Assembly (NCBI GenBank): GCA_000934665.2 | Contig: KZ538882.1 | Span: 1 to 42,401, forward strand | From: Catajapyx aquilonaris | Taxonomy: Eukaryota | Direction of reading: 5' to 3' | DNA: 42,401 nt | In this document: positions 13,571 through 42,401 of the stretch, piece after piece | Numbering within the stretch: position 1 is the first letter of the stretch | Layout of the letters: the number at the start of each line of letters is the position of its first letter | The notes under the pieces: model-generated | Told to the model about the DNA's origin: nothing | What the model saw: the letters and a program-made list of their open reading frames with translations, nothing else | Database searches by the model: none | Made by a program: the position numbers and the translations under genes

Positions 13571-14061
13571 TAGTGATCAATATAGGCTATTGAGCAAACA
13601 AAATTCCTTTCTCTTACCAACTTTGGTGACAATGATTCTTTCGATTTTGCCTTGCACGAGAAAGTGTAAGGCGTCCCAATAGTTTTTGAGAAGTGAGAAA
13701 ATTTAGGCCAGTTCTTACTTTAGTTACTTACAACGTTGCTGTCACGAAAAATCACATGAAACCCATCACTAAATTTGGTGACATGCCTGCCCTGATTCCA
13801 GCATGGTCTGGTGGGCTGAAAAACAGCAACGCCGCTAATATGAATAGCTGCTAAAATATTTAGCAGTTCTCTAACCGATTCGAAGAAGATGCTATTCTGC
13901 TAATCTGCTATCATAGGGATTGTCTTGCTGACTGATCGACTAGAGTGTTCTGCAACTAATAATTATACTGCATATATACTAATATTGCACGATATTTACT
14001 AATAATAAAGTTTAATACTGGATTCGACATTGTATATACAGGAAGTATAATGTAATTAAAC

Positions 14062-17000
14062 TTAATCCGGCTTCTCCTCGGTGACTCCTTTTGCCTTCAG
14101 GAATTCCTCAGCTTTCTGCAGAAGAGAAACTGAATCTGGTGTTGACTTGGACAACCACTTCTTGCTCTTGGCAGCAGCCAGTTCCCAGATTGCCTTGCTG
14201 GACTGCATGGTCATCTCCATGAACTTGATGGCCAGGGCTGTCACCCAACAGGACAGGTCAGCTCCAGTCCGACCACCAGCTGGAATGTTGACCACATTTT
14301 TTTTTCACTGGGAATAAACAAACTTGACCTTGCTACAGTTCTGTGAATATCAACATGACAAGTATAGGCTACGTCCGGAAATTTTACGTGCATATATTAT
14401 GGTGGTGTTGTTTCTGGAACATCCCACTCACCATCATTCACCTCTTGCCAGTCGATCCCTATGGCTTTGGCAAACCCTGGATCGGCCAGAAATCCGCCAT
14501 CAAATTTGATGAAAGCCATGATCTCATGAAGAGTCTCCGACGTGTTCTCTTCGAGCTCGGCAAACGATTCCAACTGAGGCATGAACGAACTCCTACTCGC
14601 CTGTTTCTCCAGAATCCCTCCTGTCGTTGGAGCAATCGTTTCGTCAGGTTGGAAACTTACTGGTGGCATCAGCACTCTCTTATTGTTGGCACAAGTCGCC
14701 CTGCATTGTTGCGTTTGATCGACTGGCCCGGAAGTCAGCGTGAGTCTGTTAGGTCGAGCCATTGTCATGCGTCTAGTCATGTCAGATTCTAGCGACACTG
14801 GGATCGGCATGGCTCTAGTTACAGGAGCAGACAGAGCTACTGTTGCTAGAATGGCGTCTGCTGGACTGGCGCTGTACATCATCATCCTGGGCTGTATTCC
14901 GTGCCACCCGTGCGGGATCTGACTGGCCACATGCCTCGTCTGAATGGCATACAGATCCTTGTCCATACCATGTCTGCGAGGATCTACGGCCACGAATGAC
15001 GTGTGAGACGACACCAGTCCATACTTGATCCCAAGCTTCACAATCTCCTCCTTCAGTCTTTCCTCTGGAGGTTCAGAGATGACTGAATGAAGCAGGCTCG
15101 TCCCTTCCTCCAAGTCGCGGATCAATTTGCGGGCTGCCAATCTGTCCAATATATCAGATCAACTTCCCATTTTCTTTCAAATTAAAAAAAAAATTGTACT
15201 AATCCGAAAAAGTGCAGCGAATTGTTGAAAAAAAATATGGACATATACTTATGCAAGAGATCTCCTGTTAAGAGATCTTCCTGCGTGACCTTCACAGTCG
15301 TGGTCAGTGGTCCGTCTGGTGACTTGGCCGTGATGGTGACACCCGTTGGGACACTCCCATCCTCCCAAATGCAGTACACCAGCAACCTGGAGCCATCAAA
15401 CACTGGCGGAATCTGCAAACGCAAAAACAAAATGTCATTCCATACACAAAATATTGTACTGTCGGACTTGTCACACACGTGATGTGGAGCACCCTGTGGT
15501 CCTCTCAAGGCCTCTTCCGTTGTCTGTGTCTGGCCAGTTGGCTTACGGTATCCCAGCAGAGTCTTCTCGGTTGTAATTGTCGAGTGTGGTTTTAAGGCGG
15601 TGGACACTCCTTCCCAGGCCACAGACACCTCTGTATAGAGAATAGACGGAACAGTTTTCGCCAATGATCTCAGCAGACTGAATTGTCATGTGCCAATGAC
15701 CTGAAAGTGCAGGAAACAGAGCGTTCTTGAGCTGCCCTTGCACCTTTGCCTCCAAAGCCTCTTTGTATGTTGCGTACTCTGCTGTTCCTCCTCCAGCACG
15801 AGCTATCCCTCCAACCAGGTGGTGAGAGGCACTGTCACCAATTCCAAGGGTGAACACCCGGGTGTTGTGGGAGTTCTGCTTCACCAACCTTATAATCTCG
15901 TATGTGTTGCTCACCTTCAATAATGAGGAGCAACTGTCAGATGTGTTAAGACCAAAATGTTGAGACCCACCTGCCCATCAGTCAGAAGGAACATTTGTCG
16001 CAGGTAGCCCTCGATTGGTTCCTCTCTGAAAATGTGGCTTAGAGGCGTGTATATGTCAGTTCCGCCCATGTCAGCCTCGAGGTCTGAAAGCCACATTATT
16101 CATTATAGCAAACAAGTCAAATAATAGTCTGGGTGACTTATTTACTTGCGGCGTGACTTATGGCAGTCTTCAACGAGTCGTCGTCGTACTTGGCACTCTT
16201 CTGGAACAAAAACTCGTGTTCGTTTCCAAATCCAACGATGTTGAAGTAAGAATCTATTGGCAAGGATTGAAGAAATAGCTAAGGAAGATAAAAAGAAAGT
16301 TGACGTCATCCTGACGTCACTTTCCTCTCTGGAAATATGGCAAATAAAATATTTAAAAATGCAATTGTAACAATGCAGGCGTACAGTGAGGGCCTTTTTG
16401 GCTTGATCCAGGCTTTGGCCGGTCATAGATCCGGATCTGTCCAGAAGAAAGATCAGTTCCACTGGCTGCTCATCCAGATTGAAACTGGGGACAAGACTAA
16501 CAAGGGACGCCACACTCTCTCCCCATTTCTGATAATCAATTGCTCATTATTAGTACAGTACTACAATGAGTTGATTCACAGAGAATATGAACTTGCCTCG
16601 ACGCAAACCCGTGGCTGGTGAGGGTTCTCAGTGGTCACCATGAGTATGAAATCCCTGTCCATGTCCGTAGCTTGACCTGTCAAAGTCGCTTTGCCACAGT
16701 AGAAACTACCTCCGTGAAGCAGTGTGTTTCCTATGTCTGTGGTGACCGAATGTGTTGGTGACTCGATGCTAATGATTTTGGACTTCATTTCACATTCAAC
16801 TGAAATCTTAATTGGGGCCGAGGATGACCTGAAATGTTTTCAACCCTGCCAATCAACCGTAATGAGAACACAGTGCGTAATTGCAATATCCTTACAATGA
16901 GTACGCAATCCTTGAAATTCTTCTCACAGCAGAATTAGTCCTGGACAACTCCGGAGTGTACCTAGGGGCGATGGTGGTTGGAAGGAAGAACCTGAGGGCC

Positions 17001-17455
17001 TTCCCCTCCACGGATGTCTCTGTGAGATAGACCAGCCTGACCTTGGCCTGTGCCCCTGGAGAGAGGTTCCCCACCTTGACCTGGAAGATGTCCGGCTTGT
17101 TCTCCGAGGCCAGGAAGGCCGTCTGCCTCTTTTCCATGGCCTCCTCGTACTGCTTCTTGGCCTCTTCTTTCTCCTTCACCTCTCCCTTCACGGTCCTTCC
17201 GTCCAGGTCCGCCTGGAACTGGACCACGCTGGCCTCCTCGTCCAGTGGGAACATGTACACCGCCTCCACCGGACCCTTCTCCTCGTTCTTGTAAGTCTGC
17301 TCAAGGGTGACCTCCGCCACAAAGTCCACCAGACGAGCCTTGACAGACACTTCTTTCAGCGGAATGGGGACAATTTTCTCTTCTTCTCCGCCCAGGATGA
17401 TGATGACCATACCACATTCTCGGGGACATTTTTTGAGGGGCACCGTGGGAGCCAT
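14062..17455 (-). CDS. VWA5A: VWA5A-like protein, array copy 3, ~879 aa, 10 coding exons
   Basis: Exons 16896-17455, 16597-16828, 16385-16528, 16146-16278, 15971-16083, 15701-15914, 15479-15630, 15249-15412, 14432-15141, 14062-14279 (2640 nt). One GC-AG intron (donor GCAAGT at 16596). MIDAS DRSGS..GGTD..TDG. Confidence 0.9.
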
Positions 17456-18005
17456 TTTTAATGTAAATTATGTAATATTCTCTTGATTATTTTAGGGGAG
17501 AGCACACGACGATATTGATTGTATTGCAAAAGTTGAAAAAAATACCTAATTATGCTGAATGCAGCTCTCTACAGCTACCAAGAATCCATTTGTCCTTGCA
17601 GATACAAAACCTGCCAAGTTTTACTGGTTTCATATTTCCAACAATATACTGTTTATTGTCCGTAACTATAGCTAGAAAAAATATGTTCGACGCAACAATC
17701 ACCATACTGGATAATAATAATTTTGTGGCAAGACTTGTGGTTACTTTCAGTGATCTTTTAATTGCCTTAACTTTATTAATTGTGATAGATACAAAAGCAC
17801 ATGAAATTTTACTTGAAATTAATGAAATCCCTCACTTTCACACCTGTAAAATAACTGTGTCAAAAAAGGGCCTCTAATACAATTAGGCTATGTGAACCCC
17901 TCTCAAATGGTGACCATTATTACGATAAATCTTCTGGTCCGTTATATTTCTCCTTATTCACATTAATATAACTTTCGAATGACAAACAGTGTCAAACATT
18001 ATTAT

Positions 18006-21000
18006 TCAGAGAGTCGACAGATGTATTCCTTTCGACTTCAAGAAATCGCCAGCCTGTGTCAACAAGGAATCAGCTTCTGTCACTTGAGTGGACAACCACT
18101 TCTTGCTCTTCTCAGCGGCCAGTTCCCACATATCCTTACGTGAACCCAATTTCATTTCCAAGAAAGCCACACCCAGGGCTGTCAACCAGCATTCCATTTT
18201 GACTCCAACTTTATGTCCAGCTTTAAAAAAGACAAGAAAATGTGCACATTAAAATCCCAACAATTGATCAGAAAATCCAGAAAACATGTTTTACTGAATA
18301 TTTCCATTTTTTTAAACACACTATACCGGCCTGTATTTCTTCCCAGCAGATTTCAACTGCCTTTGCAAATCCTGGATCCGCCTTGTAGCCACCATCAAAC
18401 TCCATGAACGAAAGCAGTTCATGTGTCCTTCGTTCTAAAGGAGACATGCCCAAATTAGAACCACTGGAATCCAGTGTTCCAGTTGTTGTATCCACGGTTG
18501 TATCCGACAAGTCCCATATCTCTGTTAAAAATGGAGGCATCCTTTTGGCGGCAGGCATCCAACCATCGGAAGAACTGCTGCACTGTTGCGACCCAGTCTC
18601 TAGTCTTTCAGACTCTAGTCTTTCAAAACCCGGCCTTTTTGTGCCAATGGGTAATCTAAGACATTCTTTTATTCGGCAAAATTTGACTGGACCGCCATAA
18701 TTTGGAATACGACGCGTCTGTAAAATTGACAAACTGAAATCATTTTCTGCCGTCTGATTTTCAGGATCCACTGCTACGAAAGACGTGTGAGTCGATACCA
18801 TGTCTGTAAAGTGAGGCACTCATTTATACAAAATGTACAAGTAAAATGATCAGGACTACCGGATAATGACTTTTTACAATAATTGTATAATAATTCCTTA
18901 CTGTATTTGCAGCCAAGTTGAACAATCTCGTTGGCTACTACTTCTCTCAAGGGTGCATCATCCTTATTTTTATGCAGATAACTGCTTCCTTCTTCCAAAT
19001 CACGGATTAGCTTCCTGGCAGCGAGTCTGGAAGTGACAATTTAATCAATGTTTTTAATCAGATCACCACCTCACTAATCTGCACTAATCGGTTCGCTTAC
19101 TTATGCACAATGTCGCCTTGAAACAAGTCGTCTTCAGTGATGGTGACAGACGAAGAGAGAGGGCCATCAGGTGTTTTAGCAGTGATGGTGACACCTGTGG
19201 GGACAACACCTTTTTCCCAGATGCAATATACCAGCAGTCGTGATCCGTTGAACACTGGCGGAACCTAAAGTACAATAGTGCAATTTATTTATTTAATAAC
19301 TGACGTGTATTTAGCCATACATTGAATGGCGCTGGTTTTGGAGCAGATTCCTCTGAAGTCTTGACAGGTTCAGATTTGCTGGAAGATGTTCCTTCCCACT
19401 TCACCGCAATGTCTGCAAATACGCCATAATTAAAGCCATATTTTTATATATATAAAAACTTGTCACTTGGTCACCTGTCAGTGCTGGACACAATGCGTTT
19501 TTGAGCTGCCTTTGAACTTTAGGCTCCAACGACTCGTTGCGTGTGGCGAATACTGCAGTTCCTCCTCCAGCTCTAGCAATACCTGAAACTAAGTGATGCG
19601 AGACGTGATCCCCGATTCCCAAGGCGAAGACCCGTGACTTGTGACAATTCTGATGCACCAAACTGATCACCTGATCCGTGTTGCTCACCTTCGATATATG
19701 ACAACACCCGTCATTAACACAACTGAACCTGCCAGTAATTAATATAACAATTTACCCGTCCATCAGTCAGGACAAAAATCTGCCTGACGTATCCTGTGAT
19801 CTGCTCTTGAGAAAATATCGCTTCCAGTGGTTCGTAGATTTCTGTACCACCCAAATTGGCCCGAAGATCTGTGGTGTACAAAAGTGTTAACAACTTGTCC
19901 AGTATGTTTGTCAACACTTACTTACCGAATTGGACGTAATTTAAAGCAGTTTCCAAGGACGTGGAGTCATACTTCACGCTCCGAGGAAATAGTAACGAGA
20001 AACTGGATCCGAATCCAACAATGTTGAAGTAACAATCGGCCGGTAACGAACGAAGGAACAACTGTTGAAAAAGATAACATGTATTGCGTTACAATAATAT
20101 TACTGAAAGGCGTGGAAAGCAAGAAAAGCCAAATATTTGGCAAAAACTTTCACATACGTAAATATGAAAGTTTTTGCCAAATGGGGCTTTTCTTGCTTTT
20201 CTTGAATTTTCTGCTCTCCATAGATCTATGGAGAGCAGAAAATTCGCATTAGTTTTCATACTGTTAGAGCTCTTCGGGCCAACTCGGTGCTATCTCTTCC
20301 CATAGATCCAGATCTATCCGTAACAAAGACCAGTTCAGTCAGCTGTTCATACATTTTAAAGCTCGGCACAAGACTGACGAATGCAGCCACGCTCGACTCG
20401 AATTTCTGTGTTGTTAGAGAAACAATCAGTTGCATTTTCCTCTACTTTTTTTAAAAATATGCTATAAATTGTGCCTAACCTCAACACCAGCACGTGGATG
20501 GTGAGGATCATCTGTTGAGACCAAGAGGACAAAATCTCTGTCCATGTCCGTGGTCACTCCTTCCAACTTGGCTTCTCCTTTAAACATCTTCCCTCCAGCT
20601 TTGTCGTTCTGAGTGACTGCGATTATATCATGGCTAGGAGATGACATCTTGCAAATTCGTGACTTCATCTCGCATTGGACTTGGATTTTCATCGGAGCTG
20701 GCGAGAAGCTGAAATTATCTAATAAGTTAAAAAGTCGATGCAACCAGTACAGTATACGTACTTGCTGTAAGGAATTGATTGGATCTCTTGCGATTCAGGT
20801 GAAGTGTCTGTACTTGGCACGTAACGAGGTGCGACAGTCGTTGGTATGTAGAATCGCACGTTATTGTCTCCTTCAGCCTCCATTTCAGACAAATACGCCA
20901 GTTTGATCGTAGCTTCAGAACCAGGCGCCAAATTCCCAATCCTCACCTGCAGATTATTTAGAAACAAAACATCCGACAGAGAGAATAAGCCTATTAGGGA

Positions 21001-21365
21001 AAAAAATATACCTGAAATATGTCCGCCTTGCTTTGTCTGAGCAAAGCTGCAGCTCGTCTTTGTTGGATGGCATTATTATATTGCTTCTCAGCCTCATGCT
21101 TTTCCTTGACCACTCCATTGACCGTCCTTCCGTCCAGACGAGCCTCGAACTGGACAACACTGGCCCCTTCGTCCAAAGGGAACATGTAGATGGCCTCGAT
21201 TGGACCACCTTCGTCATTCCGGTACACCTGCTCTAGTGACACTTGAGCCACGAAATCCACCAGACGGGCCTTGACATCAACACTCTTCAGAGGAATCCGA
21301 GGTCCGTTTCCTTCAGGACATGATATGTACAATCCGCAAAAATTTGACACCAGATCTCCAGCCAT
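18006..21365 (-). CDS. VWA5A: VWA5A-like protein, array copy 4, ~815 aa, 12 coding exons
   Basis: Exons 21012-21365, 20762-20946, 20480-20708, 20262-20405, 19926-20061, 19756-19868, 19475-19688, 19321-19412, 19101-19264, 18902-19026, 18327-18803, 18006-18220 (2448 nt). Start GCCATGG. MIDAS DRSGS..GGTE..TDG. Confidence 0.9.
20116..20199. repeat. Long imperfect inverted repeat (hairpin) in an intron of copy 4
   Basis: AAAGCAAGAAAAGCC (20116-20130) pairs with GGCTTTTCTTGCTTT (20185-20199). ATTTGGCAAAAACTTTCA (20135-20152) pairs with TGAAAGTTTTTGCCAAAT (20165-20182), leaving a 12-nt loop. Confidence 0.92.
20204..20245. repeat. Perfect 42-bp palindrome in the same intron
   Basis: GAATTTTCTGCTCTCCATAGA|TCTATGGAGAGCAGAAAATTC is its own reverse complement. 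Confidence 0.97.
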
Positions 21366-22199
21366 GGCTCTGAAAGTACATATGACCTGCGTGTTTATAT
21401 ACACTGCGTACATCTGGCCTTGAAATGTGGCACTGACCATGAGCCTTGCAAATATTTCCTGCTTGTGACCTTGGCCTTAACCGATGCAGCCTGCCTGTCA
21501 ATCTGTCACAATTTGCATTAATATTATGTCCATTCAATGCTGGGTGACATGTCAACAATAATAATTGTACAAGTACCTTCCGATCTGAAGAGCTGTCGAT
21601 GCTCAACTAAACCGTAATATCATTCGCCCTGTGATCTAAACATGTGTGTGTCTATTTCCAACCCAACATTGTGCGAATATTTTTGCGAGATGTAGCCTTG
21701 GAAATAAAGTCGCTAAAATGATGATCCTCTTATCGTACGTATATGCATAAAATGTGTATACGCGTAAGTTACAACTCAAAAAATATGTTCAATCTTTAGG
21801 ATTAAGACATGAGAGATTAATTTTTGTCGCAAAAATTTGTAGGCTAATTAATTTTTTCACCATTTTAATATTGTTGATAATAAATTTTTTTGCTACCCTC
21901 TCATCAAAGCCTCTCATGGACTCGAAAAAATACGATCCAATGGAGCAAAAGTAAATTGGCAAAAAAAATTCGTCATATCCGATTTATATTTGCAGTGTTA
22001 CTTCTCCAGGCCATCAGCATTCGCAATAAACGATTTCATGTAAAAATAAATTAATATTGCAATTCGTTTACACTTGACAATGACTTTGACATGACACACT
22101 TGATTTTATGACAACAATCGGAGAGGTTCAACAATGATTGTCATTGTCACCAAGGAAACAGCTTGTTTTGAATGTCAGCTGCTCAGTTCTGGTGGAGTC

Positions 22200-22847
22200 A
22201 TGGCTGCTGATGAAGTGAGTATAATTAGCACTTTTAATTAGCATTAATGTTGGCTCATAAAGATAAGGATTGCTCGTCAATTGTAGTGTAAAATATTGTA
22301 ATATTTACAGGATCTTCATCTGATCCGTGCTCTGGTCACATCCCGTCCTGGTGTCCCTTTTAAACGTTTCCGCACCCCAGAGGATCAGGCTCAGTACAGG
22401 GTGATCCTGAAGGGCATGATAGACTCACTGGAGGAGGAAGAGAGGTTGGCGAAGGCAAGGATGGGTCAGAAGGGTGACACCGCAACACTGGTGGTGGGAG
22501 AGCAAGGTGACCACCCATCATCATCAGCAGGTCCTGCTCCTGATGGAAGCGGTGACATCCAGTCACAGCCTGGAGGATGCGGACAGAGCAGGGTTCCGGA
22601 GAAGAGGGGGTCAAGTGAGCTTCCGGACCCACCCAGAGAGGCCAAGGAGGCCAAGAGAGATGACTTGCCAGAGGATGACAGCTCCGACGCTACTGATGTC
22701 ATCGAGATGTCTGACGATGACATCAGTGACCTCACTGATGATGATGATAGCGACGTCATTATTATTGATGATGATGATGATAGTGACATCACCGACGACA
22801 ACGATGAGGATGTGGAGCTGCATGAGGAGCCTCGTCTGACTGGCTGA
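22200..22847 (+). CDS. Orphan acidic, largely disordered protein (~183 aa) with tandem SUMO-interaction-like motifs
   Basis: Exon 1 22200-22214 (GTCATGG context; MAADE|GTGAGT); intron ends TTTACAG; exon 2 22311-22847 is in frame. GC-rich coding-like composition against AT-rich flanks. AATAAA at 23048. The C-terminus contains VIEMSDDD, ISDLTDDDD and VIIIDDDDD. Confidence 0.75.
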
Positions 22848-23476: not shown

Positions 23477-26400
23477 TTACTTTTTGGATCGGAGAAATTC
23501 TTCGGCTTGTTTCAGAAGAGAGTCGTAGTCGCTGGGAATCTCTTTCTTGAGCCACTTCTTGCTCTTGAGGGCCACCAGCTCCCAGCTTTCTTTCTCGGAT
23601 GGCAATTCCAGCTCCATGTACGCCACGACCAAAGCGGTTAGCCAATACTTCAAGTCGACTCCACTTGCTCCTGTGGGGAAAAGTAATTGCGGGTTTTAAT
23701 ATTACAAGAAATGCCTCCTGGACAGTCGCGTATTTTTACCATCTTTCATATCTTCCCATTCGATTCCAATCACTTTGCTTATCCCTCCTGTTCCAGGATC
23801 AACACTCCCGTCGAAGTTTATCAAAGCAAGGAGTGACTCGAGTGGACCTGGCTCAATAAATGCATCTGTGTTTTGGACTCCAAAACCACTTGGCATCCCA
23901 AAAGTAAAACCTGTGCCAACTGCTGGCATTGGTTGTTGTATCGGACCACCAAATAATTGACCTTCATTATTGGCAGATCCATCAGAACCAAATGACGGTT
24001 GAGATGAGCGCAGGTGTTGGCACAATACAGAAAATCCGCTCTGTTGTTGGCTATTCGCACCAAAGGAAAATGCTGGAGTTGCTTCTGGTTTCGGTTGTGC
24101 TCCAAAAAGGCCGGAATTATTTGTTGCTGCTGTTTTTGCCGTGGTTGTGTCCTCGACAAGTGCAGATAGATTATGAGAATGAAGCTGCGGCTGGGGGGTG
24201 GCACCAAAGGAAAATCCAACAGGAGCTGATTGCATAGTTGATTGCGCTCCAAAAAGACTGGACTTAATAGCGACAGGTGCTGTCGTTACTGGAGCATATG
24301 CCGTACAACCAGAGGAATCCAAAAATAGAGAATGTTGTGTTGAAGAGCCGAATGGAGTGGCTGCTGGCCCACATTTCAGCTGCTGTTGCTGCTGCTGCTG
24401 GGGCTGGGGCTGTGCTCCAAATAATGAGCCAAAATTAGACTGATTTGCTGGAGCACCAAAACTAAATCCAGTGCCCGGCCAAAGCGGACCCTGTGAAACA
24501 GCCCCAAATGGTTGAGAGTAGCCATGCCCTAGTCCAAACTGATTTGGCACTTGACGAGTGTGAATCATCCATGATTTGCTCTGCTCAGCATGTACTCTCG
24601 AATCAACAGCCACAAATGATGTGTGTCTGGATGCCAAGCCTGTAATTCAACAAATATTAATTACTCATCCATAAAATACGCAGGCATAATTACAATCATG
24701 CGTATTTACCATATTGGCAGCCAAATTTGACGATTTCAGCTTCGACATCTTCCGGAAGAGGTATGCCAGTGACGCTATGCAAATAACTTGTCCCTTCTTC
24801 CAAATCACGAATTATCTTTCGGGCTGCGAGCCTGTAAAATCAAGATCGGTTCGTACGAAGTTGTATGATATTACACTGTCGACTTACTTATGCACCAGAT
24901 CTCCCTTTAATACGTCGTCATCTCCAATAGTGATGGATGCAGAGAGTGGACCATCAGGAGTTTGGGCAGTGATGGTGACTCCGCTGGGGACACTTCCGTC
25001 TTCCCAAATGCAGTAGACCAGAAGACGTGACCCATCGAATACAGGTGGGACCTGTACGGCCAGGTTATATATTAACGAAACATGTAATTAACATCGAAAC
25101 ATTATTAACTTGCATGAAATGGAGCACTCTTTGGGCCGATGCACCCTTTTTGTGCAGCATCTGGACTTTTCTTGGGCTTCCGATATCCCAACAGTGTCTT
25201 CTCCGTGACAAGCTCTACTTCAGGTTTGCTCACAGAAACATGCGGTGTTCCTTCCCATGTGACGGTCACGTCTGAAAAATCATCGCAGATCAGTTGTGCA
25301 CTACTAACAATGTGTTAAATACGAAGCTTACCTGTCAGGGTTGGAGACAGAGCATTTTTTAACTGCCTCTGCACTTTCGGTGCCAACGTTTCATTGTTAG
25401 TGACAAATACGGCGGTTCCTCCTCCAGCACGTGCTACACCTTCCACCAAATGATGCGAGGCACAGTCCCCAATGCCCAGTGCAAAGACGCGTGACTTGTG
25501 GCAATTACGATGAACCAAACTGATCACCTCTTCGGTGTTGCTGACCTACGAAATAAACTTCATGCGTCAATATATATTGTGCCATTTATTCCAAACTGAT
25601 CAGCTCACCTGTCCATCCGTGAGAAGGAACACTTGACGTAGATAGCCTGCGATAGGCTCCTTAGAAAAAATCGCTGCGAGAGGGTTATATATTTCTGTTC
25701 CGCCAAGATTGGCATCAACCCCTGAAAGTAATAAACTCTTTTAGACCATCACACATCTTGCCAATACTTGGCAGTAACTTACGATATGCAGTGTGATTGA
25801 GGGCTTTGTGCAAAGTACTTGAATCGTACTTGACGCTATTCGGAAACAGCATCTCAAAAATACTTCCAAAACCAACGACATTAAAGTAACAGTCGGTTGG
25901 TAACGAATGCAGGAAAAGCTGAAAGGAAAGCAATGTAATCAGACCGACATTACAGTAATGTTCATACAATTATTACCATTAGCGCTTGTTTAGCCTGACG
26001 AATACTCTGTCCACCCATAGATCCGGATTGGTCGAGAACAAATATCAGCTCCGCTGGTTGCTCATCCAGATTGAAGCTTGGAACGAGGCTCACAAAAGCA
26101 GCGACACTTGCTTCAGATTTCTAAACAACAATGTAGTAATTAGACTCCATAATAATTGTACAAGAATCGATAACAGTACCTCCACACAAGCTCGTGGTTT
26201 GTGAGGATCATCCATCGTCACCAACAGGACAAAGTCACGATCCATGTCCGTTGAGTGGCCAGCCAATGAAGCTTCTCCTCTGAATAACTTCGCATCGTTG
26301 TCTTTCTCGTTAATTATGTTAACGATAACCTTATGGCTCGGAGACACCATTTTATTAATCGCCGACTTCATCTCGCATTTCACCTCAATTTTCATCGGTA

Positions 26401-27177
26401 CTGGCATGTAACTGAAATGATAGTTTGTAGTTAATCATCCTCGTTAGCGTTCTGCGTAGTCTTACTGCGTATAAGGCACATTATGAATATCTTGCGCTTC
26501 TTCGGTGGTGTCCGTGCGGGGTATGTAACGAGGCGCTATTGTGGTTGGCAGGAAGAATCGTACCGCTTCTTCTTCACATGACATCTCGGCAAGGTACACT
26601 ATCCTTACTTTGGCCATAGCACCGGGAACTAAATTGCCAACCTTCACCTACGTTACCGAAAAGAAAAGCCGTCAGCATTTTGAATCTATTACAAGTTAGT
26701 AAAGTCTCACTTTGAAGATGTCAGGCTTGTTCTCCTCGGCCAAGAAAGCCGTTTGCCTGTTAGCGACAGCCTGCCGGTATTGCTGCTCAGCGTCTTCCTT
26801 CTTCTTGACGACACCGTGAATGGTACGTCCATCCAACTCAGCTTCGAACTGAATAACGCTTGCTGCTTCGTCCAGCGGAAACATGTACACGGCTTCAACC
26901 GGATTCGCCTCATAGTTCTTGTAGGTCTGCTCCAGCGTCACCTCCGCAATGAAGTCCACCAAATGCGCTCGTACCGACACATCTTTCAGCGGAATCTGAG
27001 CGCAGCAGGATCCGTCCGCTTTGGTAATACACAAACCGCTGAATTCCTCCTCCAGTCGTTTAGGTGTCCATGGTGTCCAACCTATAATTATCTGCCAGTT
27101 AACATACCGGTACACTGTATTATTATTTAAAAAATTTAAATCACTGCGGCATTACCTGTCGGTCCTTTCCCAAACAT
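23477..27177 (-). CDS. VWA5A: VWA5A-like protein, array copy 5, ~983 aa, 13 coding exons, with an FG-repeat linker
   Basis: Exons 27156-27177, 26711-27081, 26466-26647, 26180-26411, 25977-26120, 25783-25918, 25609-25721, 25332-25545, 25114-25271, 24888-25051, 24710-24831, 23740-24639, 23477-23670 (2952 nt). One GC-AG intron (donor at 25113). MIDAS DQSGS..GGTE..TDG. Confidence 0.9.
23879..24538 (-). repeat. Coding FG-repeat region (14 FG motifs) with a short polyQ
   Basis: QFG, PFG, FSFG, NFG, SLFG, PFG, SLFG, FSFG, GLFG, FSFG, SFG, QLFG, FTFG, GFG within ~220 aa rich in Q/S/T/A/P/G/N. CAG-type Q7 run at 24380-24400. Confidence 0.93.
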
Positions 27178-27619: not shown

Positions 27620-28991
27620 TCACTTTTCTCCATCAAAGTTGGGCCATTCTATCGACATCTTGTGATCCGCTCCCATGAGATTCATTGCGATTGCCTATTT
27701 TTTTTAAAAAAAAAAATTAGAAAATGCAATGAGTCGGCACAATGCCCGCAATAATAAACCACAATGTATATTTACCATCGTTACCCATCGAAGATTCTCA
27801 GTGGACTCCCACGTGCGTGACTTCTTATGGGAAAATATGTCTTCGCTCACTTCATGACCTTTCCTGGGCAATCCGTGCAGCAGAATCCAATCCAATTGTG
27901 CTTCATCAACTTCCTGTAATTATTTATTTAATTATTATTACCCTCACGGTACATTTAAACCGACCGGTGTATACCTTGTTGGTCAGGCACAGTTCGCTCA
28001 TATCGTGCGGTCCTACAGTAATAACATGCGATCGGTACACAGCCTTTGCTGGACTGTCCGACTGGTGTATCTCTGTCCTGTGATGCATCCCAAGCTTCAT
28101 TCCTGCACCGAGTCGTTCCTGGCTTAATTCGTTACCCTGTAAGCAAACCTGCTGGTTACGCATACGGTATTATCCGCATTGCGATGAATATACCTGAGGA
28201 CAGAAGTACTGTAGATGAATCCCAAGTTTGGGCAGAAGTTCAACATAAGTCTGCAGTAGTGGTCCGGATGGTCCGACCCAACTGGCTTTTAACCGCTTCA
28301 GATATCCGTAATGCTCCAGGGCGGTCATAACATTTGCCATGGCCTGCAACGGCTTGAACTCATCCGAGCCGCAGTTGACAGTCGGAACATTAGAGCCATC
28401 GGCTACTTGTTCTAATGCTTTGTGTGAGTGGCTCTCCATGAATATCATTTGGCACAAACTGGCAGCCGTCCTGTCCATTAATATAAAATGAAAAGCTATA
28501 TGTGACATCCTCTAATAATAATTTAGTACCTTCCGATATCTTCATGATTTCCTGTATTGTCTGGAGAATAATTCATGTGGCACGCAGCACCTTCCAGAAG
28601 ATTAATTGCTGAGGAGACCCCCAAATGGCTTGCGATGCTCGTTGGCGACAGGAACGAAGCAGCAACTTTGCCTTTCAAGTACGGAAAAGTCTGCCAATTA
28701 ATTTTAAAAGTAATTAATAGTATGTCAATTAATTATAATTAAAATGCTATATTTATATTACCTTCTTCCCATCACGCACAGCAGTCTTCAGATCCAATGC
28801 GGACCACAGAATGAATTTTAATTCTGAACTGCTGTAGTCTACAGGCGACAAAAAGTCTCTCCCTCTAATATCACAATACCTACATTATAATTAATCATAA
28901 TTAATTAATCATTATTAATAAGTACAATGCATACAATTAAGACAAACCTGGTACAAAACGATCTAGCATTTCGTGATGTGATTCTCAACAT
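27620..28991 (-). CDS. OTC: Ornithine transcarbamylase-like protein (~324 aa), predicted mitochondrial, catalytic motifs degenerate (pseudoenzyme)
   Basis: Exons 28948-28991, 28762-28879, 28530-28690, 28194-28470, 27975-28136, 27776-27913, 27620-27694 (975 nt, no stops or frameshifts). Collinear with animal OTC: GRDFL..ILWSALDLK, LKGK, VPTVN..SD..PLQ..EHYG.LK.L..SWVG, DW..LH.LPRK..EV..DIF...S....EN..W..M. N-terminal MLRITSRNARSFC is presequence-like. Confidence 0.85.
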
Positions 28992-29117
28992 TTCTGAACA
29001 CGTTAGGCATCAGCCTGTCAAGTTAAGAAGACCTGAAGTTAATTTAAATAATTAATAATAATTAAATTACATTGATCACATGTGGCAGCAACAAGTTATT
29101 TCCAACGCTGTGCATAT

Positions 29118-29127
29118 GTGACGTCAC
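29118..29127. promoter_or_regulatory. Palindromic CRE/ATF-type site in the divergent OTC-like/DTD2 intergenic region
   Basis: GTGACGTCAC contains the canonical TGACGTCA. A near-match TGACGTCT lies at 29293. Confidence 0.4.
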
Positions 29128-29706
29128 GGGCCATTCGGACACACCCCACATTTTTCCACAGTTTTAAATGCGATAATTTAATCTCAATATTTACTGACAT
29201 TTTGTTAAAAGTCAGTACACAATTTATGTACATTTTAATTGCGTTTAATTAGTTTTTTTTTCAACCCCGGCTCATTTTCAAGTCTGAACTGGTGACGTCT
29301 GAAGTTTTCGGGGTCGTTTCAGGTCAAGTTTCAGTTCGATTGGGATTCAGTCAGTTCAGCGACGTGTGGAGGCCACTTCAGAAGGCTTCAGACCAAGCTT
29401 CAGACCCTGGACTATTAATATTGAGGGCAAGTTGGGAGTCCAAAAGGAAGCAAAAACATTCACATAAAACCTGAAAAAAACAGTTGTTTCCAACTCTGGT
29501 TGGTCACTTAATGTATTTTAAAATGTTTGGCGGGAAATTATAAATTGCTGATAAAATTATGTGTTAACAAAAAAAAAGGTCAATTGTTAACATATCTTCC
29601 CAGAAAATGGCTTAAGTACTAGGCAAGTACCGTACGCCACTAGTCGACGATTATACAGGTGGTACCGTGCGTTACATTAAACCGGACGTACTTCTAAAGG
29701 TAAAAA

Positions 29707-30309
29707 ATGAGCGTGCAGGGCAGGCTGGTCTTGCAGCAGTGCGTCAAGGCGCAACTGAAGCTGAGCGATGACAACATTCTGAAGGTGAATTTCTAAAATT
29801 GTGTTCATTTCGCACTGTTTAATCGCTCGATTTGTCTGCAGATTGGAAAAGGCATGGTGATTTTTGTGTGCTTCATGCAAGGAGCCACATGTGACGTCAT
29901 TAGTAAAATTGGTAATGTAACGTAAGCCAATGATGGTTTTAATAAGATATCCTAACTGGACTTACCGCTTGTTTTATTCACAGTAAAAACATTGGTTAAT
30001 GTACAACTGAGCGAGGATGTGAATGGGAAGCGACGATCTATCCTGGACATTCCAGGAGACTTGCTGATAATCCCGCAAGCCACCTTGGGTGGTAAGGTTC
30101 GTGGGAAGACGATGCAATACCATGGGAATGTGGAGAAGGAACTTGGACTCAAGTTGTACTCGGATTTGGTGCAACAAGTGAAGGACGCATGTGCGCAAAA
30201 TGCAGCGTGGCTTGAGGGAGGGTGTGTGGTCCACAGTGGTTCGTATGGTGAGAGGCAGGTGCTGTCTATGGATACCAATGGGCCTTTCACACATGTACTG
30301 GAATTTTAA
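29707..30309 (+). CDS. DTD2: D-aminoacyl-tRNA deacylase 2 / Animalia-specific tRNA deacylase (ATD), 157 aa
   Basis: Exons 29707-29784, 29842-29911, 29984-30309 (474 nt). Motifs LQQC..A.L, GMVIFVCF..GA, SILDIPG..LIIPQATLGG, MQYH.N, YG.RQVL..DTNGPFTH..EF* match human DTD2. AATAAA at 30580. Confidence 0.96.
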
Positions 30310-31674
30310 CACATGTGCCATTTACAGTTAATGAAATGCTACGGTGTGTAAGTGTATATTTTACAGTCCAGTGTTTTTTTTTAAAGCAAATGTAAACCGC
30401 ATATGTTATGGATTAATATCAAATTTTTATTTCTTCAGATATTTCCTCAGCATTCCAAAACTTTTACACAAACCTTGTCTCAGTTGTAGCCTAGCGTGTG
30501 ACAACAGCTGCTGTAAAATTTGTACTAATTTTCTCGTTGTTGACTAGATTGATTGGATTGTAGCATTTTTTTTTCATGTAATAAACCCTCTCTTTGTACA
30601 AGTACAATCAGTTTTTTTTTCTACATTTGATTTCTAGGTCAATTTCCTGAGGTGTGGAAAAAGGGACTTGCAGGAGCATATATTTTTTCTCAAAAAATGT
30701 TATAATTTGATATCAACTAGTAGAACTTAATTATGTCACAAATTATTTCACGCAGCATGTAAGTTAGTTGCCTGTTACCTCACCTGCACAATTAGTATGG
30801 ACTCGTCCATCTTGCAACTGAACCTAAGTCAGATTCTACTGTATTGACAAAAATATGACAGATATGATTTAATAATTTGCGGACATCAAAATTTTGTTTT
30901 CATTTAACTTACATGTAGTTAGATGGACTGGATATTTATTTCTATTTCGTGAAATTTAAATGACGTCAACATTCTAAATATGTCGCCATCTTATGCACAA
31001 TAAATGTGTAATTTTTTTAATTAATTGTTGCGTAAAAGATGCTTCATTCCTTCTTGGGTTTCTGTGGCGTCCAATGTGCTACATTACTTCATAACACAGA
31101 CGAAGAGCCTCCATACCAAGAAGTGTACATTTGGAATAATAATTATGAACATTTTATCAACGGGAATATGTGCTCTATTATGCATGTTTTGGGTGTAAGT
31201 GATTTTCATAACACAACCCAAACCTGAAAGACGTACTTGAATGAAGATTATTATACCATAAAGGAGAATTTTACATAAATAATCACTAATATTAATCTTT
31301 CAAGTCTCAATGCCAGCTAATATTGATATTATTCTTACATTTCAGGTAAGATGATGTCTTCATACATTAGTGAGGAGTGATGCATGTGATTCATTTCTGG
31401 AATTGGTGAGCTTCTGCTTGTCGTGATGTACAAAATGTGATGTAGCTTGCGTATACGCATGATATAAGTATAGGATTTTATATAACAACACCAATGAAAA
31501 CTAATGTCATCTAGAACCCAAGAGTTCAACTAACTGCCAGGCAAATGTGCTACATGATGCGACCTCACCCTATTAATGTGACGATCTTTCTTAAGAAAAC
31601 TTACGCCATATAAAATAAAACATTTATTGACTAGAGACCTGGGACTTTTCTACTGTACACACATGAGTTTTAGT

Positions 31675-36312: not shown

Positions 36313-36634
36313 TTTTTTTTTTTTGGAAATGTTCCCGTGGACTATACTGTACGGAACATGTCACCTTGGGTTGCTCTCCTGTCTCATGGCGCCCTTTTGT
36401 GTGTTTTTTTATGAGAATTTAAAGTGTCGGACTGACGTAACAGTGCAGGTCAGTAACGTCCACTTCTTAGAGGTTATACAGAGTACACATTATTTTGCGA
36501 CGTAAAATGTTTTTCATCAGTAGTTTTATTTGGCTGGAAAAAAATCACAGTGAGTCTCTCATTGATGTTGGTGGCTCAACTTTTTAGTGACTGGTTTTGT
36601 CGAGGCAAGAATTTTTTTTTGGATGAGAGTTCTT

Positions 36635-38514
36635 TTAGGCAGGAGTGAGACCCAGATCATTGAGGAACTTCTGGAAAAGCGCGTTGAACTGCTTGATCTC
36701 ATCCTCATGGTCCTTGTAGAACTGCTGAAGCTGCTGTTCCAGAGTGTTTGCTGCATCCTGAAGCTCCTGGAAGATATCCTGACCCAGTGCCTTCAGCTGC
36801 TCGACCAGGACTTGAAGCTTGGCCTTGATGGCAACCCACTCTTGCTTGGCCCATGCGATGAACTCCTCAACACGTTTCTTCAGGATGACAGCCAGATCCT
36901 CCAGGAGAGCCTTGCCCTTCTTTGCTGCAGACTCAAAGTCCTTCTCAGCCTCTGAAGCGTCTCTGGAAATAACATTTTCGCCATTACAGAGCCAGTTCAG
37001 AGATGTCTACAGTCCCTTTAAGCCAAAGAACGATCTGACGTCACAACAGCCATGCCACGTTCAGCCCTGCTTCCATCTTCCCTCCAATCACGAATCGCTC
37101 TGCAAGTATTCTTCTACGCATGCTCAGAAAACACCAGACGTGCTTTCTGAACATGCGCAGAGCGATTCTGGGACGTGATTGGAGGGAATAGCCTGGTGGA
37201 CGTGACGTCAGCTCGTTCTTTGGCTTAACGGACTGTAAGAACTTACCCCTTCTGCAGAGCGTGGATGCCATTGACGACGTCGGTCAGAGCAGAGTTGACA
37301 GCGTCCTTGTTGTCGTTGTAGAACTGGACAGTGTCGTCGATTTCCTCATTGCCGACCTTGTTAACCTCATCCAGTACCTCTTGTACGAACTTCTTCACCA
37401 CCTCAATATCAGCCTGGATTGTTGGCTGGATCTTCTTGTACTCAGCCTGTGCCCAGGCCAGCAGAGCATCAGCGTCCGCCTTGGCAGTTGGCTCGAAATC
37501 CTTAGCCAGAGTCTGCAGAATCTGGGCCATCTGCTCAGCATCTTGGATGGCAGGAGTCAGATCAGTGATGCTGCGAATAAAATCCGTTATAGAGATGTTC
37601 AGTCTGTTGTCATAATTTTAACTTACTCGTGGACTGGGATTCCAAGGGACTTGAGGACCTGAAGGATATCGCGCCACATGGCGGTGAACAGATCCTTGTG
37701 GGCCTCGAAGAAGTCGGCCACACTTTTCATCAGAGTTTGCCATTCGACGGCGAAATCGTTGCCGAACTATAGTAAGAAAATGAGTTGATTAGGACATGTC
37801 TAATTAGTACATTAGTTGTAGAGTAATCACATCGTTAGCAAGAGTCTCCAAGGCCTCAAGAGCTGAATCCAGCAGGGGCTTGAGGGCCTCCCACTTCTCC
37901 TCAACCCATGTCAGGAACATCTGGACATCATTCTTCAGAACAACACCAAGATCCTTCAGGACAACCTCCAAATCTCCAACGATAGCTTCGATATCCTTCT
38001 GCAAACCGGCAGTATCACTGGAATATACATGGTTAGGTTAACCTACAGTATGTTATACCAAAGAACGGGACCTACCCAGCGTCGATCTTCTTCATGGCAT
38101 CCTGAACAAGGCCGTAGATGTCCTTGACCTCCTTGGAGTGGTTTCCGATGAACATGAGGGCCTGGAGGGTGACATCGTGGTTGAACTCGATCACATCAGC
38201 CAGGACAGCCTTGCCCACTTGGACTAGGGCCTCTCCGGCCTTCTCAATCTCTGGTTGAAGATGTACTCCTTCGGCCTCGAGCCATTGGATGAACTGCTGG
38301 ATGTCCGTGGCACTGGCGTCCACAGCAGCTTCCACAACCTGGGTGAGGTCCTTGATAAAGTCGATGATTGGGTCATCCGCTACCTCTGCAAATAAGTGGG
38401 TCATAACCTGTGCTAATTGGAGTCATAAGGGGATTTAAAAAACGTACTTTTTGTAGGCAGGGCATTGCAGGTGCAAAGACCGACAGCGAGGAAAAAAGCG
38501 AGAAAGAACTTCAT
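36635..38514 (-). CDS. Secreted acidic amphipathic-helical protein with four ~105-aa repeats (~451 aa), apolipoprotein/lipid-binding-like, paralogue A
   Basis: Exons 38448-38514, 38076-38385, 37831-38017, 37627-37766, 37247-37570, 36635-36962 (1356 nt). Signal MKFFLAFFLAVGLCTCNA. Repeats carry F-h-x-W-h-x-x-E/K-like cores (FIQWLEAE, FLTWVEEK, LLAWAQAE, FIAWAKQE) and F-[FYI]-x-x-[HN] motifs. Visibly GC3-rich codons. AATAAA at 36525-36530. Confidence 0.85.
37010..37235. mobile_element. Tc1/mariner-type MITE (226 bp) in the last intron of paralogue A
   Basis: TA flanks at 37008-37009 and 37236-37237. ~35-bp TIRs: CAGTCCCTTTAAGCCAAAGAACGATCTGACGTCAC / GTGACGTCAGCTCGTTCTTTGGCTTAACGGACTG. Further internal inverted repeats: CCCTCCAATCACG/CGTGATTGGAGGG and GAATCGCTCTGC/GCAGAGCGATTC. 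Confidence 0.88.
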
Positions 38515-38581
38515 CTGTAAGGAAAATGTCGTCAGCAAACTTTCTTAATTGATGTGTTAAATGTACGGGCGCAGAACTCAC

Positions 38582-38644
38582 CTTGTCTGACTACCCAGTA
38601 CTCTGGAGTGGCGGACAAGGAACGTATCTCCATTCAATTTATAC
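38582..38644 (-). promoter_or_regulatory. TATA box and short non-coding first exon of paralogue A
   Basis: GTATAAAT at 38644-38637. Donor AG|GTGAGT at 38581. Acceptor TTACAG directly before the ATG at 38514. Confidence 0.6.
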
Positions 38645-41581
38645 CCCTTCATAAGAATTGATAAAATATTATCTCGAGTATAGTTGACGTCGAAGAAAGT
38701 TTTTTTTTTTTGGTTCTGATATATATTTAATCCGTTGGATCTGTAAGAATGGACTTTGCTACCTGAGATTTAAAAAAAAGGCATTGCAAAAATGCATTGC
38801 GCATTACACCTTCTTTTGGATATAGAGATATGAAGGGAGGGATGGACTCTTGGCAGACATCTCAGGGACATCCATGACCGGCTTCAGAACTGACCATTAT
38901 CAAACACTGTTTCGTCAAGACATGATATGTTAGACAGGTGTGCACTCATAAGTCGTTTCCCTTCCAATTAAAGAAATGGGTGTGATTATTATAATACAGG
39001 AAATATTGACCACATTACAGATTGCATAATTATTTTTGTTGCATTTATAACCTCTTCATTAATAATAGATTTGATGTAGACACGTCGTTAGAAGAGTATT
39101 GCCATCAAAAGCCATTAATTAGCTCAATTGTTGACATTATTTATTGTGAAGGTTGAACCAACAATCCTATACTTGTAGGATATATCTGTGCTTTAGATGC
39201 ATATCACGTGACTTTATTGGGAGCAAATCATGGGTGTGTTACTTACCCAGTTATTTTCGATACGTGTGCCTCAAAGGTTAAACTGTTTTAAAGTCGGTCA
39301 TGCAACATCAGGATGATTAATCCTGTCAGATATAACCAGTGGCGTCTTAGTGTCGCAAATGATTACACACGTAATCATCAAGTCCACGATAAAAATTTTT
39401 AATCCTATTGTTGTTCTTGCCGTCAATTTATCAGCATAAGGCGAAGAACCACTTTATCCAGGATGTCAGTACAGTACATCAGCGAATTGTATAATATCTA
39501 ATCCGTATTAATTATCTCATGTCACATATGCCTAGAAACTACTTTTATTTGGACAGTCTCTTTGCAATGTGACTTGCAGGACAGATTAAGTTGTGGACAT
39601 TGTGTACACCTTTGGAACCCGGAATTAGTATGATAAGCTAGTATTGCTATTTGCTTTCACGATTATAATAAGTTATACAGGCTTAAGCTTATAGGGTGTT
39701 GTTCGTACTATAGAAATCACTATCTGTATTTTTAAGTAAATTATATGCTGATATGACTAATGTTCATCTGAGGGCCATAACCTTTCCTATGTGTCAAAAG
39801 TTGCCTGCATGACCAAGGTGTAATTAAATTTATTTAAAAAAATTAAGTTGTAAGTAGTTTTGTACTGTTTAAGGTCACATGAACATATCAGTGTTCTAGA
39901 CAAAGTAGCTCTTAATTTCTTTCATTTTTTTCATTTTTATATACGCATTTTTCAGGTAATTATGTAAAGAATCGACAGTGTACAATGCATAAAGCTCACT
40001 GTCTAAGCACTCCCATCGTTTATAGACTGCAATGGGGTTAGTACATGATAATTTATATGAAGATGAAAATTATTAATAATTATTCTTCAGTGGTGGATTC
40101 ATCGCACGTTATTAATTTGTTCCCTTTCGATTTATGATAACCATAAGTATGTTGAGAATTTTTACAGCGCAAATTTGGGTCATGGAATGCAAACTGACCT
40201 ACAAGAGGAAGATTGTCGAATTACTTTGTAATGTAGGTTGTGAACTTATTGCAATTGATTTGCCGTTACAATATTCTTCGTACCCTTACTGCGATAATAA
40301 AAGTATGTGGAGAGATGTTGGAACAGATCAGGAGTGTCCTATAAAATAATCTGGACATCAAAATGAAGTGCAAGTAAATATTGATATCACTTCTGTGACC
40401 TGTTCTTATAACATCTCATTGTCTGGGTACAAATGTAATATTATTTGAAGTGCCGTGCCGGTATTTTATGTATACAGGGAGTGACTTTTAGAGAAGGGTA
40501 CGTTGTTAGGGTACGTTTTAAAGATACGGGCACTTGCCCTTATTTATGACAACAGTACCTGTCACAATAATGATGATCCCATTTTAACGGGTTACAAGTG
40601 CTGTTTTCGAAAAAAAAAATTATCTCGATTGTTAAGTTTCTCAATGACGTCGACTTTCTGATATACTGCTTTCCTGGTCTTATCCGTCAAATATGATAAA
40701 AATTCTGACATTGATTGCAACATATATGTTGGAACCCAATTAGGCATTTATGTAATTTTTTTGTTACACTTAACTTGCACCATTATGTGGTCACATAGCG
40801 GACATTTTTAAACATTGAAAATCAAAAAAATGCTACCAAGGAAGCTGTACTGGATGCCTTTATTTTTGTAGGCCTAATAAAAATTCTGTCATTGAAGTTG
40901 TGGAATCATATATGACCATCATTATTGATGTGAAATTGCTGAAAATGGCAACGACACAATGCGGATTTCTATATACATTTTTCAAACGTGTATTGTTTAA
41001 AAATTACACTTTAATAGACACAAAGTGAGTCATTTGCATAAGTTCATGTTACATGTAATATTCTCTTAAGTTGAAGGGCCATTCCTTTCTCTTCTCGCAG
41101 CAACATGAACCATCTTGGCTTCTTCAAAAGGCTGAAACATTTCAAGAAGAATGTCCTCTGCATTACAGTTCACTGTTTTTCAATATGGGATTAAACAGTA
41201 TATCTTCTCTACAATATTTGAGTGTGCTAATAAGTATGCCATGTCATCATCAAACCAGGCTGAAAACTTTGATCCATCTTCCAACGCCATAATTTTAATG
41301 TGCAGGAATATTCTCATCCACTTGACGAACTCATATGTAAACATATCCAGACATCATATGTAACATGATGCCCATATTATCAGTTCTGCAGAATTTTTTT
41401 GTTGCTGTAATTTCAGTTGGGTTAAATTGTGGGGGGGAAAGTAATAAGTTTTTTGTAATATATATTTTAAGTTTTATTCAGGCTTCATGGGGGACATCAC
41501 AATTGTTGGTGGATGGGATCGATTTTGTTGCGATCGTTTAAAAAATAGTCATTTCGGAGTCGAGATGGAGTATTTTTTTCT

Positions 41582-42350: not shown

Positions 42351-42401
42351 CTGGACAACATGTTAGTTCAATGCTGTCATCTCCAAAACTGTATATACTT
42401 A

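Follow-up and report, generated by a model that had tools for sequence, protein, structure and literature searches.

Ornithine transcarbamylase (OTC) holds the phosphate of carbamoyl phosphate with the S-x-R-T motif (S90, T91, R92, T93) and R141, and binds the carbamoyl group with HPxQ (H168, Q171); N199 and the DxxxSMG motif (D263, S267, M268) make up the ornithine site, as set out in the human-OTC review whose numbering is used throughout (PMC8517447). Most insects are described in reviews as lacking OTC (PMC8517447, PMC4581275), and some insects were credited with EC 2.1.3.3 and an uninterrupted arginine pathway in an earlier genome paper (PMC6444547). The closest described proteins are the OTC homologues of 40 arthropod species collected under KEGG K00611, namely of six Coleoptera, 25 Lepidoptera, three Hemiptera, two Thysanoptera and one species each of Phthiraptera, Odonata, Collembola and Thecostraca (Insect Mol Biol 2025; PMC12419136). 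According to that paper, all 40 lack D263 and C303 and likewise R141, H168, Q171, L304 and R330, the Helicoverpa protein is similar to human OTC in an AlphaFold model, arthropods lack CPS1, and none of the analysed arthropod genomes has a canonical OTC; older work is cited in which OTC activity was not found in cockroach and silkmoth fat body, and any other role of the arthropod OTC-like genes is left open (“Further studies are needed”). Here we analyse an OTC-like gene on a 42,401-nt stretch of Catajapyx aquilonaris DNA (contig KZ538882.1, assembly GCA_000934665.2), referred to as the window, to which all coordinates apply; its predicted product lacks most of the residues named above.

Structure of the OTC-like gene

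The gene model was rebuilt by script. The OTC-like gene runs on the minus strand from 28991 to 27620 in seven exons, which join to a coding sequence of 975 nt (324 codons plus TGA) with neither internal stops nor frameshifts; all six introns are of the GT...AG type, AT-rich, and 57–81 nt long. The ATG at 28991, with an A at position -3, is the first in-frame start, because an in-frame TGA precedes it. No other OTC-like locus was found in the window by tblastn with family and canonical queries. The gene is made up as follows.

28948–28991, minus strand: exon 1, start codon (28991–28989) and most of the putative basic presequence, aa 1–14 plus 2 nt
28762–28879, minus strand: exon 2, aa 15–54, end of the putative presequence and helix 1 of the carbamoyl-phosphate domain, placed by tblastn with family and canonical OTCs
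28530–28690, minus strand: exon 3, aa 55–107 plus 2 nt, with the degenerate STRTR site S-I-A-S-H (aa 72–76)
28194–28470, minus strand: exon 4, aa 108–200, with E120 at R141, K-P-L-Q at HPxQ, G-P-S-G-P at GDGNN, and Q-T-Y where the family described below has N-T-Y
27975–28136, minus strand: exon 5, aa 201–254, with G242 at D263 and the site of the 14-residue SMG-loop deletion
27776–27913, minus strand: exon 6, aa 255–300, with H-G-L-P-R (formerly HCLPR) and E-N-L (formerly ENR)
27620–27694, minus strand: exon 7, aa 301–324 and stop codon TGA (27622–27620), last helix and C-terminal tail with the P-x-F pattern of animal OTCs
27695–28947, minus strand: span of the six introns (28947–28880, 28761–28691, 28529–28471, 28193–28137, 27974–27914, 27775–27695)
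28963–29010, minus strand: possible upstream open reading frame (ORF), opened by an out-of-frame ATG (29010) and closed by TAG after 15 codons, overlapping with the main start and relevant only if transcribed

Homology to OTC and lost motifs

Database searches with the Catajapyx protein were run with single exons as queries, and the spliced protein was aligned separately (MAFFT, scripts). Exon 4 (92 aa) matched the OTCs of sheep (E 6.6e-11) and human (E 2.3e-10) in the PDB. In Pfam, it matched OTCace_N as a fragment covering profile positions 99–147 (E 2.4e-6; 28.2 bits vs a cut-off of 29.9), exon 6 matched OTCace (E 3.7e-7; 30.8 bits vs a cut-off of 29.4), and exon 2 matched OTCace_N weakly at profile positions 1–30. 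The NCBIfam model TIGR00658, which has an equivalog cut-off of 280.85 bits, scored the single exons 4 and 6 with 51.8 bits (E 6.5e-14) and 24.0 bits, respectively. Similarity of this kind is far beyond chance, and marks the predicted protein as a true OTC homologue within the aspartate/ornithine carbamoyltransferase superfamily (OTCace_N, PF02729; OTCace, PF00185).

The motifs were compared in a MAFFT alignment with canonical animal OTCs, with the shark OTC P0157 (STRTR from residue 90, HCLP from 302) as reference. At the carbamoyl-phosphate site, STRTR is replaced by S72-I-A-S-H76, R141 by E120, and HPxQ by K147-P-L-Q150, with loss of H168 and retention of Q171; HCLP has become H267-G-L-P270, in which G268 stands for C303 and L304 is kept, and ENR reads E293-N-L295, with L295 at the position of R330. 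At the ornithine site, GDGNN is replaced by G174-P-S-G-P178, placing P178 at the position of N199, D263 is replaced by G242, and S267-M268-G269 are absent together with their neighbours, a deletion of 14 alignment columns. The literature names 14 ligand-contact positions, three of which are retained (S90, Q171, L304).

Judged from this alignment, two sites are lost, that for carbamoyl phosphate with STRTR, R141, H168, C303 and R330, and that for ornithine with N199, D263 and the SMG loop in its entirety. The features by which a functional OTC (EC 2.1.3.3) is recognized, i.e., S-x-R-T with R141, HPxQ, the ornithine site, and HCLP with R330, are not present in the predicted protein, which on these grounds is unable to bind either carbamoyl phosphate or ornithine in the canonical manner and is not to be expected to synthesize citrulline. 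The losses of D263, C303, R141, H168 and R330 and the overall fold are shared with the arthropod K00611 proteins; Q171 and L304, in contrast, are listed as lost in PMC12419136 but are kept in the Catajapyx protein.

These results bear on an earlier note on this DNA, whose observation is confirmed and whose interpretation is supported in part. It had described seven exons, 324 residues and an intact frame, with which the rebuilt model agrees in coordinates, exon count and length, and each of the motif replacements that it had listed (SIAS, E at Arg141, KPLQ, GPSGP, loss of SMG, HGLP, ENL) is present in the MAFFT alignment. A comparison with the OTCace and OTCace_N models, which it had proposed, yielded matches to both domains (exons 6 and 4). 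Its reading of the gene as a pseudoenzyme holds with regard to the lost active site and the intact frame; such a protein is not peculiar to this genome, as the 40 arthropod species reported in PMC12419136 indicate.

A family of stripped OTC-like proteins

A phmmer search of 1.84 billion cluster representatives, for which exon 4 served as query, gave 307 matches at E<=1e-3, the best 150 of which were examined. The closest of the matches listed shared 42–47% identity with the query over the exon. Among them were 68 proteins of at least 290 aa, 30 of which lacked all four motif patterns and nine of which had all four. The spliced Catajapyx protein was nearest to the motif-less proteins (P0001, 37% identity over 308 aa), the top canonical OTC ranking tenth with 30%. 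In the MAFFT alignment, 25 of the 30 motif-less proteins and the Catajapyx protein have an identical deletion, 14 columns long, where other OTCs have the SMG loop. P0033, which is cut off soon after the deletion, was aligned but excluded from the family alignment, the conservation counts and the trees. The family as analysed here thus consists of the Catajapyx protein and 24 others; all 25 have the SMG-loop deletion and lack the STRTR, HPxQ and HCLP motifs.

A maximum-likelihood (ML) tree was calculated from 43 sequences, comprising the Catajapyx protein, the 24 other family members, ten canonical eukaryotic OTCs (five of them unnamed and assigned to eukaryotes by similarity and N-terminal extensions), and eight prokaryotic proteins. 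The 25 family proteins form one clade with full support (ultrafast bootstrap 100, Shimodaira–Hasegawa-like approximate likelihood ratio test 100; recovered in 100% of 200 bootstrap trees), on a stem of 1.05 substitutions per site; the Catajapyx protein branches near the base. It has 36 of the 47 family-consensus columns, which is mid-range relative to the leave-one-out values of 60%–90% for the members, and most pairs within the clade are less than 40% identical. The substitutions and the identical 14-residue deletion are common to the whole clade and therefore have a single origin in its common ancestor.

Two of the 24 other members are named, P0001 from Anabrus simplex (“ornithine transcarbamylase, mitochondrial isoform X2”) and P0123, an unnamed product of Spodoptera littoralis. 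The Atlas cluster nearest to P0001 has 53 members, most commonly from Arthropoda. When a profile of the family alignment was searched, P0001 and P0123 were the only family proteins among the 120 matches listed, the rest being canonical OTCs. A word-indexed search with exon 4 among longer proteins gave no match; the Catajapyx protein itself and its close orthologues are therefore absent from that word-indexed collection. The Catajapyx gene is, by its sequence, a new and rather distant member of a stripped OTC-like family that is already in print, and shares common descent with the Anabrus and Spodoptera members. What is added here is the pattern of constraint in cleft and core, the fold, the N-terminal extensions, and the intron correspondence.

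The product P0123 carries an N-terminal extension of 133 residues (20 K/R, 15 D/E) which does not resemble a presequence, and only its OTCace domain passes the Pfam cut-off; the record may reflect a gene-model error or a fusion. Five further motif-less proteins (P0036, P0066, P0070, P0109, and P0124) were set aside as a different group, their SMG-loop region being of full length. They lack STRTR, HPxQ, DxxxSMG and HCLP, are rich in A, R and G, and may represent a separate, possibly bacterial, group of degenerate transcarbamylases.

Constraint on cleft and core

Across the 25 family sequences, entropy averages 2.50 bits at 23 columns of the cleft that do not vary among canonical OTCs, equal to the level of the canonically variable columns (2.54 bits), and is 1.89 bits at the 63 canonically invariant columns outside the cleft. 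Over 275 non-cleft columns, the site entropies of the family and of canonical OTCs are correlated (Spearman 0.33, p = 1.4e-8). In the family, the cleft is no longer constrained, and the body still is. Individual members retain between zero and four of the 14 contact residues, and the mean net charge at these positions has shifted from +1.5 in canonical OTCs to -0.6.

A number of residues are conserved specifically in the family, namely G at 128 (96%), N-T-Y at 202–204 (72–84%), P209 (100%), S-P at 226–227 (76%), and H at 279 (76%). The Catajapyx protein has Q-T-Y at 202–204, P188 at the position of P209, S-Q at 226–227, and H244 at the position of H279.

Predicted fold and N-terminal extension

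The structure was predicted for P0001, the closest named relative, as a stand-in. The AlphaFold2 model, based on a 24-row family alignment, has a predicted local distance difference test score of 90.5 and a predicted template modelling (TM) score of 0.88; residues 1–27 are disordered, and the shortened loop is modelled with confidence. A Foldseek search of the PDB with this model gave human OTC (1oth) as the top match (TM 0.86/0.90, 29% identity). In full length, P0001 scores above the cut-offs of both Pfam domain models (77.2 and 73.8 bits). Against the TIGR00658 cut-off of 280.85 bits, P0001 (142.2) and P0123 (54.8) fall below and the shark OTC P0157 (382.1) lies above. The model thus suggests that the family has kept the two-domain transcarbamylase fold.

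The 20 N-terminal residues of the Catajapyx protein that precede a conserved G-R-D comprise five Arg, one acidic residue (D), and four Ser/Thr, a composition which is basic and hydroxylated, as the earlier note had described it. In the Catajapyx protein and in 20 of the 24 other family members, an N-terminal extension of 19–58 residues has many K/R and S/T but few D/E residues, and resembles the leader of canonical animal OTCs. By composition alone, the extension fits mitochondrial import.

Probable descent from animal OTC

In the alignment, introns 2–6 of the Catajapyx gene map to the equivalents of c.216, c.386, c.663, c.867 and c.1005 of human OTC, with identical phases; intron 1 lies within the putative presequence and cannot be aligned. 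We take c.216 and c.1005 to be human exon ends. The human exon end at c.386 is confirmed in print, and c.663+1 and c.867+1 are reported as variants of human OTC intron 6 and intron 8 (PMC12351844). The columns of the C-terminal P-x-F tail, P352 and F354, are kept in 76% and 80% of the family sequences, respectively. The intron matches together with this tail argue for vertical descent from an animal OTC gene, and the same two features disfavour an origin by bacterial transfer. The free ML tree places the family among the animal OTCs, with weak branch support. With the canonical animal mitochondrial enzyme (human OTC, 1oth/1c9y), the family shares the fold, as judged from the stand-in P0001, the basic N-terminal extension, and the patterns of helix 1 and the C-terminal tail; five intron positions of the Catajapyx gene correspond, and its protein differs from the canonical enzyme in having three of 14 ligand-contact residues and in the deletion of the SMG loop.

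Possible role and alternative explanations

The free drift of the cleft, the conserved core, leader and C-terminal tail, and the full-length ORFs in distant insect orders are best explained if selection acts on the folded body and not on the pocket. On balance, we favour the view that the Catajapyx gene is a selected descendant of animal mitochondrial OTC whose product, probably a trimer, acts in mitochondria at the protein level and without catalysis; that the protein belongs to the family and has lost OTC activity is far more certain than this role. A single ancestral loss of both substrate sites was followed by free drift of the cleft under continuing constraint on the core. The protein would be imported into mitochondria by means of its basic, acid-poor N-terminal extension, would fold like OTC, and would probably form trimers through the carbamoyl-phosphate domain. 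The retained role would require the folded body rather than the cleft, and would most likely consist in the binding of other proteins or in a structural function, be it in the matrix or at the inner membrane. OTC is described as binding to the inner membrane and to partner proteins (PMC8517447), and the role could be a remnant of this association after the loss of CPS1 and the urea cycle. That such a job, for instance a structural or partner-binding one at the inner membrane, has preserved a folded and imported protein for hundreds of millions of years without a supply of carbamoyl phosphate is a tentative proposal, and in this specific form a doubtful one.

In amino-acid and polyamine metabolism, enzyme folds that lack catalytic residues and are kept by selection are known from the prozyme of S-adenosylmethionine decarboxylase (AdoMetDC), the dead paralogue of deoxyhypusine synthase (DHS), and the antizyme inhibitor AZIN. 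These proteins, however, are reported to act on an active paralogue or on its regulator in the same cell, whereas the OTC-like family has no known active partner in its hosts. The inactive pseudo-dihydroorotase of some bacteria and fungi is a non-catalytic relative that gives structural support to the aspartate transcarbamylase (ATCase) assembly, a complex of the carbamoyl-phosphate pathway (PMC4581275); it differs in having a dihydroorotase fold and a known partner and architecture. Literature searches, which did not cover subscription journals, returned no paper on the function of the stripped OTC-like family; the matches for inactive paralogues concerned ornithine decarboxylase, AdoMetDC and DHS.

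Several observations weigh against a conserved role of a descendant of animal OTC. In an approximately unbiased (AU) test, monophyly of the canonical eukaryotic OTCs is not rejected (p = 0.397), so the tree does not decide whether the family lies within or beside the animal OTCs, or whether it is an orthologue or an ancient paralogue. The family evolves about three times as fast as canonical OTC (mean pairwise path 3.15 vs 1.05, median terminal branch 1.00 vs 0.27), and the carriers of K00611 given in PMC12419136 include neither Diptera nor Hymenoptera; any function would therefore be weakly constrained, or dispensable in many lineages. None of the matches listed from the 1.84 billion representatives exceeds about 47% identity over exon 4, the structural and full-length cut-off results were obtained with P0001 and not with the Catajapyx protein itself, and G 128, N-T-Y 202–204, P209 and H 279 could mark a new functional site instead of structural compensation.

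The last point leads to the possibility that the protein is a remodelled enzyme or small-molecule binder, which uses the old cleft or a new site made of family-specific residues for another ligand or reaction. The good conservation of those residues (including S-P 226–227), the retention of N329, P305 and R306 (84–96%), and the semi-conserved Q at R94 (60%) and E or D at H117 (68%) would fit such a protein; the altered charge at the contact positions would favour a cationic ligand over an anionic one, and transcarbamylases with unexpected substrates are known (YgeW, AOTC, SOTC, PTC; PMC4581275). The 14 contact positions, however, have acquired no new consensus, the top residue mostly accounting for 20–50% and the entropy equalling that of unconstrained columns. 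Moreover, all 25 sequences lack the mobile SMG loop, by which the cleft is closed, and the carbamoyl-phosphate motif kept by all known transcarbamylases is absent. We therefore regard a remodelled binder as unlikely; likewise, the “sensor of another ligand” suggested in the earlier note is disfavoured by a cleft that shows no family-wide consensus and an entropy of 2.50 bits.

Co-assembly with an active transcarbamylase, be it a canonical OTC encoded elsewhere in the genome or another trimeric relative, would make the protein a dead regulatory subunit resembling a prozyme. The active sites of OTC span the borders between subunits, which touch each other solely through the carbamoyl-phosphate domain (PMC8517447); regulation by mixed trimers would therefore come naturally. 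For AdoMetDC and deoxyhypusine synthase of trypanosomatids, dead paralogues are reported to activate the respective enzyme, and the AU test (p = 0.397) allows for an old paralogue beside the canonical animal OTCs. Such a subunit would, however, have nothing to regulate in the known hosts, as the analysed arthropods are reported to have neither a canonical OTC nor CPS1 (PMC12419136). The 42-kb window contains the single OTC-like locus found with the family and canonical tblastn queries. Animal ATCase (CAD) is cytosolic, whereas the OTC-like protein has a presequence-like N-terminus. We consider the regulatory subunit quite improbable.

It is very improbable, in our estimation, that the gene is a decaying relic, nonfunctional but yet to accumulate disabling mutations. 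The fast evolution of the family and its absence from some insect orders, as given in PMC12419136, would agree with decay, as would the possible out-of-frame upstream ATG that overlaps the start. On the other hand, 324 codons are free of stops, the six GT-AG introns are intact and consistent in phase, and the 36 of 47 family-consensus columns are typical of members; full-length family ORFs occur in Orthoptera and Lepidoptera, and core columns are more conserved than surface columns. The decaying pseudogene that the earlier note had named as an alternative is thus not borne out by a clade of 25 full-length proteins which keep the fold-defining columns and mostly carry the basic extension. The selected, non-catalytic mitochondrial protein remains the explanation that we favour.

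Genomic context

The OTC-like gene is flanked in the window by the following features.

3551–27151, minus strand: five tandem genes, each coding for VIT followed by VWA_3 (VWA5A-like), downstream of the OTC-like gene and on the same strand
6217–6789, 12959–13576, 16892–17467, 20994–21476, 26696–27151, minus strand: VIT exons (E 1e-38 to 8.7e-31)
28992–29706, no strand: divergent interval (about 715 bp) from the start codon of the OTC-like gene (minus) to that of the ATD/DTD2 gene (plus), putative shared promoter region
about 29707–30312, plus strand: gene of an ATD/DTD2-type D-aminoacyl-tRNA deacylase, head to head with the OTC-like gene

The deacylase gene is identified by a Pfam match to Tyr_Deacylase (2.9e-19), by the similarity of its last exon to mouse ATD (5xaq, E 1.5e-36), and by the patterns P-Q-A-T-L and T-N-G-P-x-T-H. 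Neither the identity of the ATD exon to mouse ATD nor the published occurrence of ATD (PMC7302879) distinguishes arthropods from other animals. The divergent interval, which might serve as a promoter region of both genes, contains a perfect TGACGTCA palindrome (CRE/ATF-like) at 29119–29126. The VIT/VWA_3 copy nearest to the OTC-like gene includes a long exon rich in Q, G and F (23702–24646) with a weak match to Nucleoporin_FG (2.1e-4, below the cut-off). One of the VIT exons, looked up in the Atlas, matched broad VIT clusters (Chordata, bacteria). Neither the VIT/VWA_3 genes nor the ATD/DTD2 gene has a bearing on the function of the OTC-like protein.

On the minus strand of 36566–42401, related exons with long-helix-like products are located at 36635–37006, 37243–37617, 38072–38422, 41582–41989, and 42023–42367; they probably represent a small tandem protein family. 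These exons had no Pfam match above the cut-off, and exon 41582–41989 had no sequence match in the PDB; a stretch of 40 nt is common to 37329 and 42109 with 73% identity. An open frame of 181 aa on the plus strand (22302–22847), without a Pfam match, ends in a long acidic tract rich in D, S and I. Rfam and tRNA scans of the window gave no matches.

Implications

On the doubtful reading that a job such as one at the inner membrane has preserved the protein without carbamoyl phosphate, the Catajapyx gene would come from a lineage that is absent from current protein collections, and would extend the family to a deep arthropod branch or beyond the taxa listed so far. The label “ornithine carbamoyltransferase, mitochondrial” on family members misleads metabolic reconstruction, and the Catajapyx gene would be mislabelled likewise; owing to mislabelled members, genome papers have recorded the arginine pathway of some insects as complete (PMC6444547), which was later corrected (PMC12419136). 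With respect to pseudoenzyme evolution, the family is a clear case in which the pathway of an enzyme vanished and the protein body was kept; the shared deletion of the SMG loop, the drift of the cleft and the conservation of the core together outline, in testable form, what selection still maintains. If the retained role corresponds to an ancestral non-catalytic function of OTC, it would also have a bearing on human OTC at the inner mitochondrial membrane.

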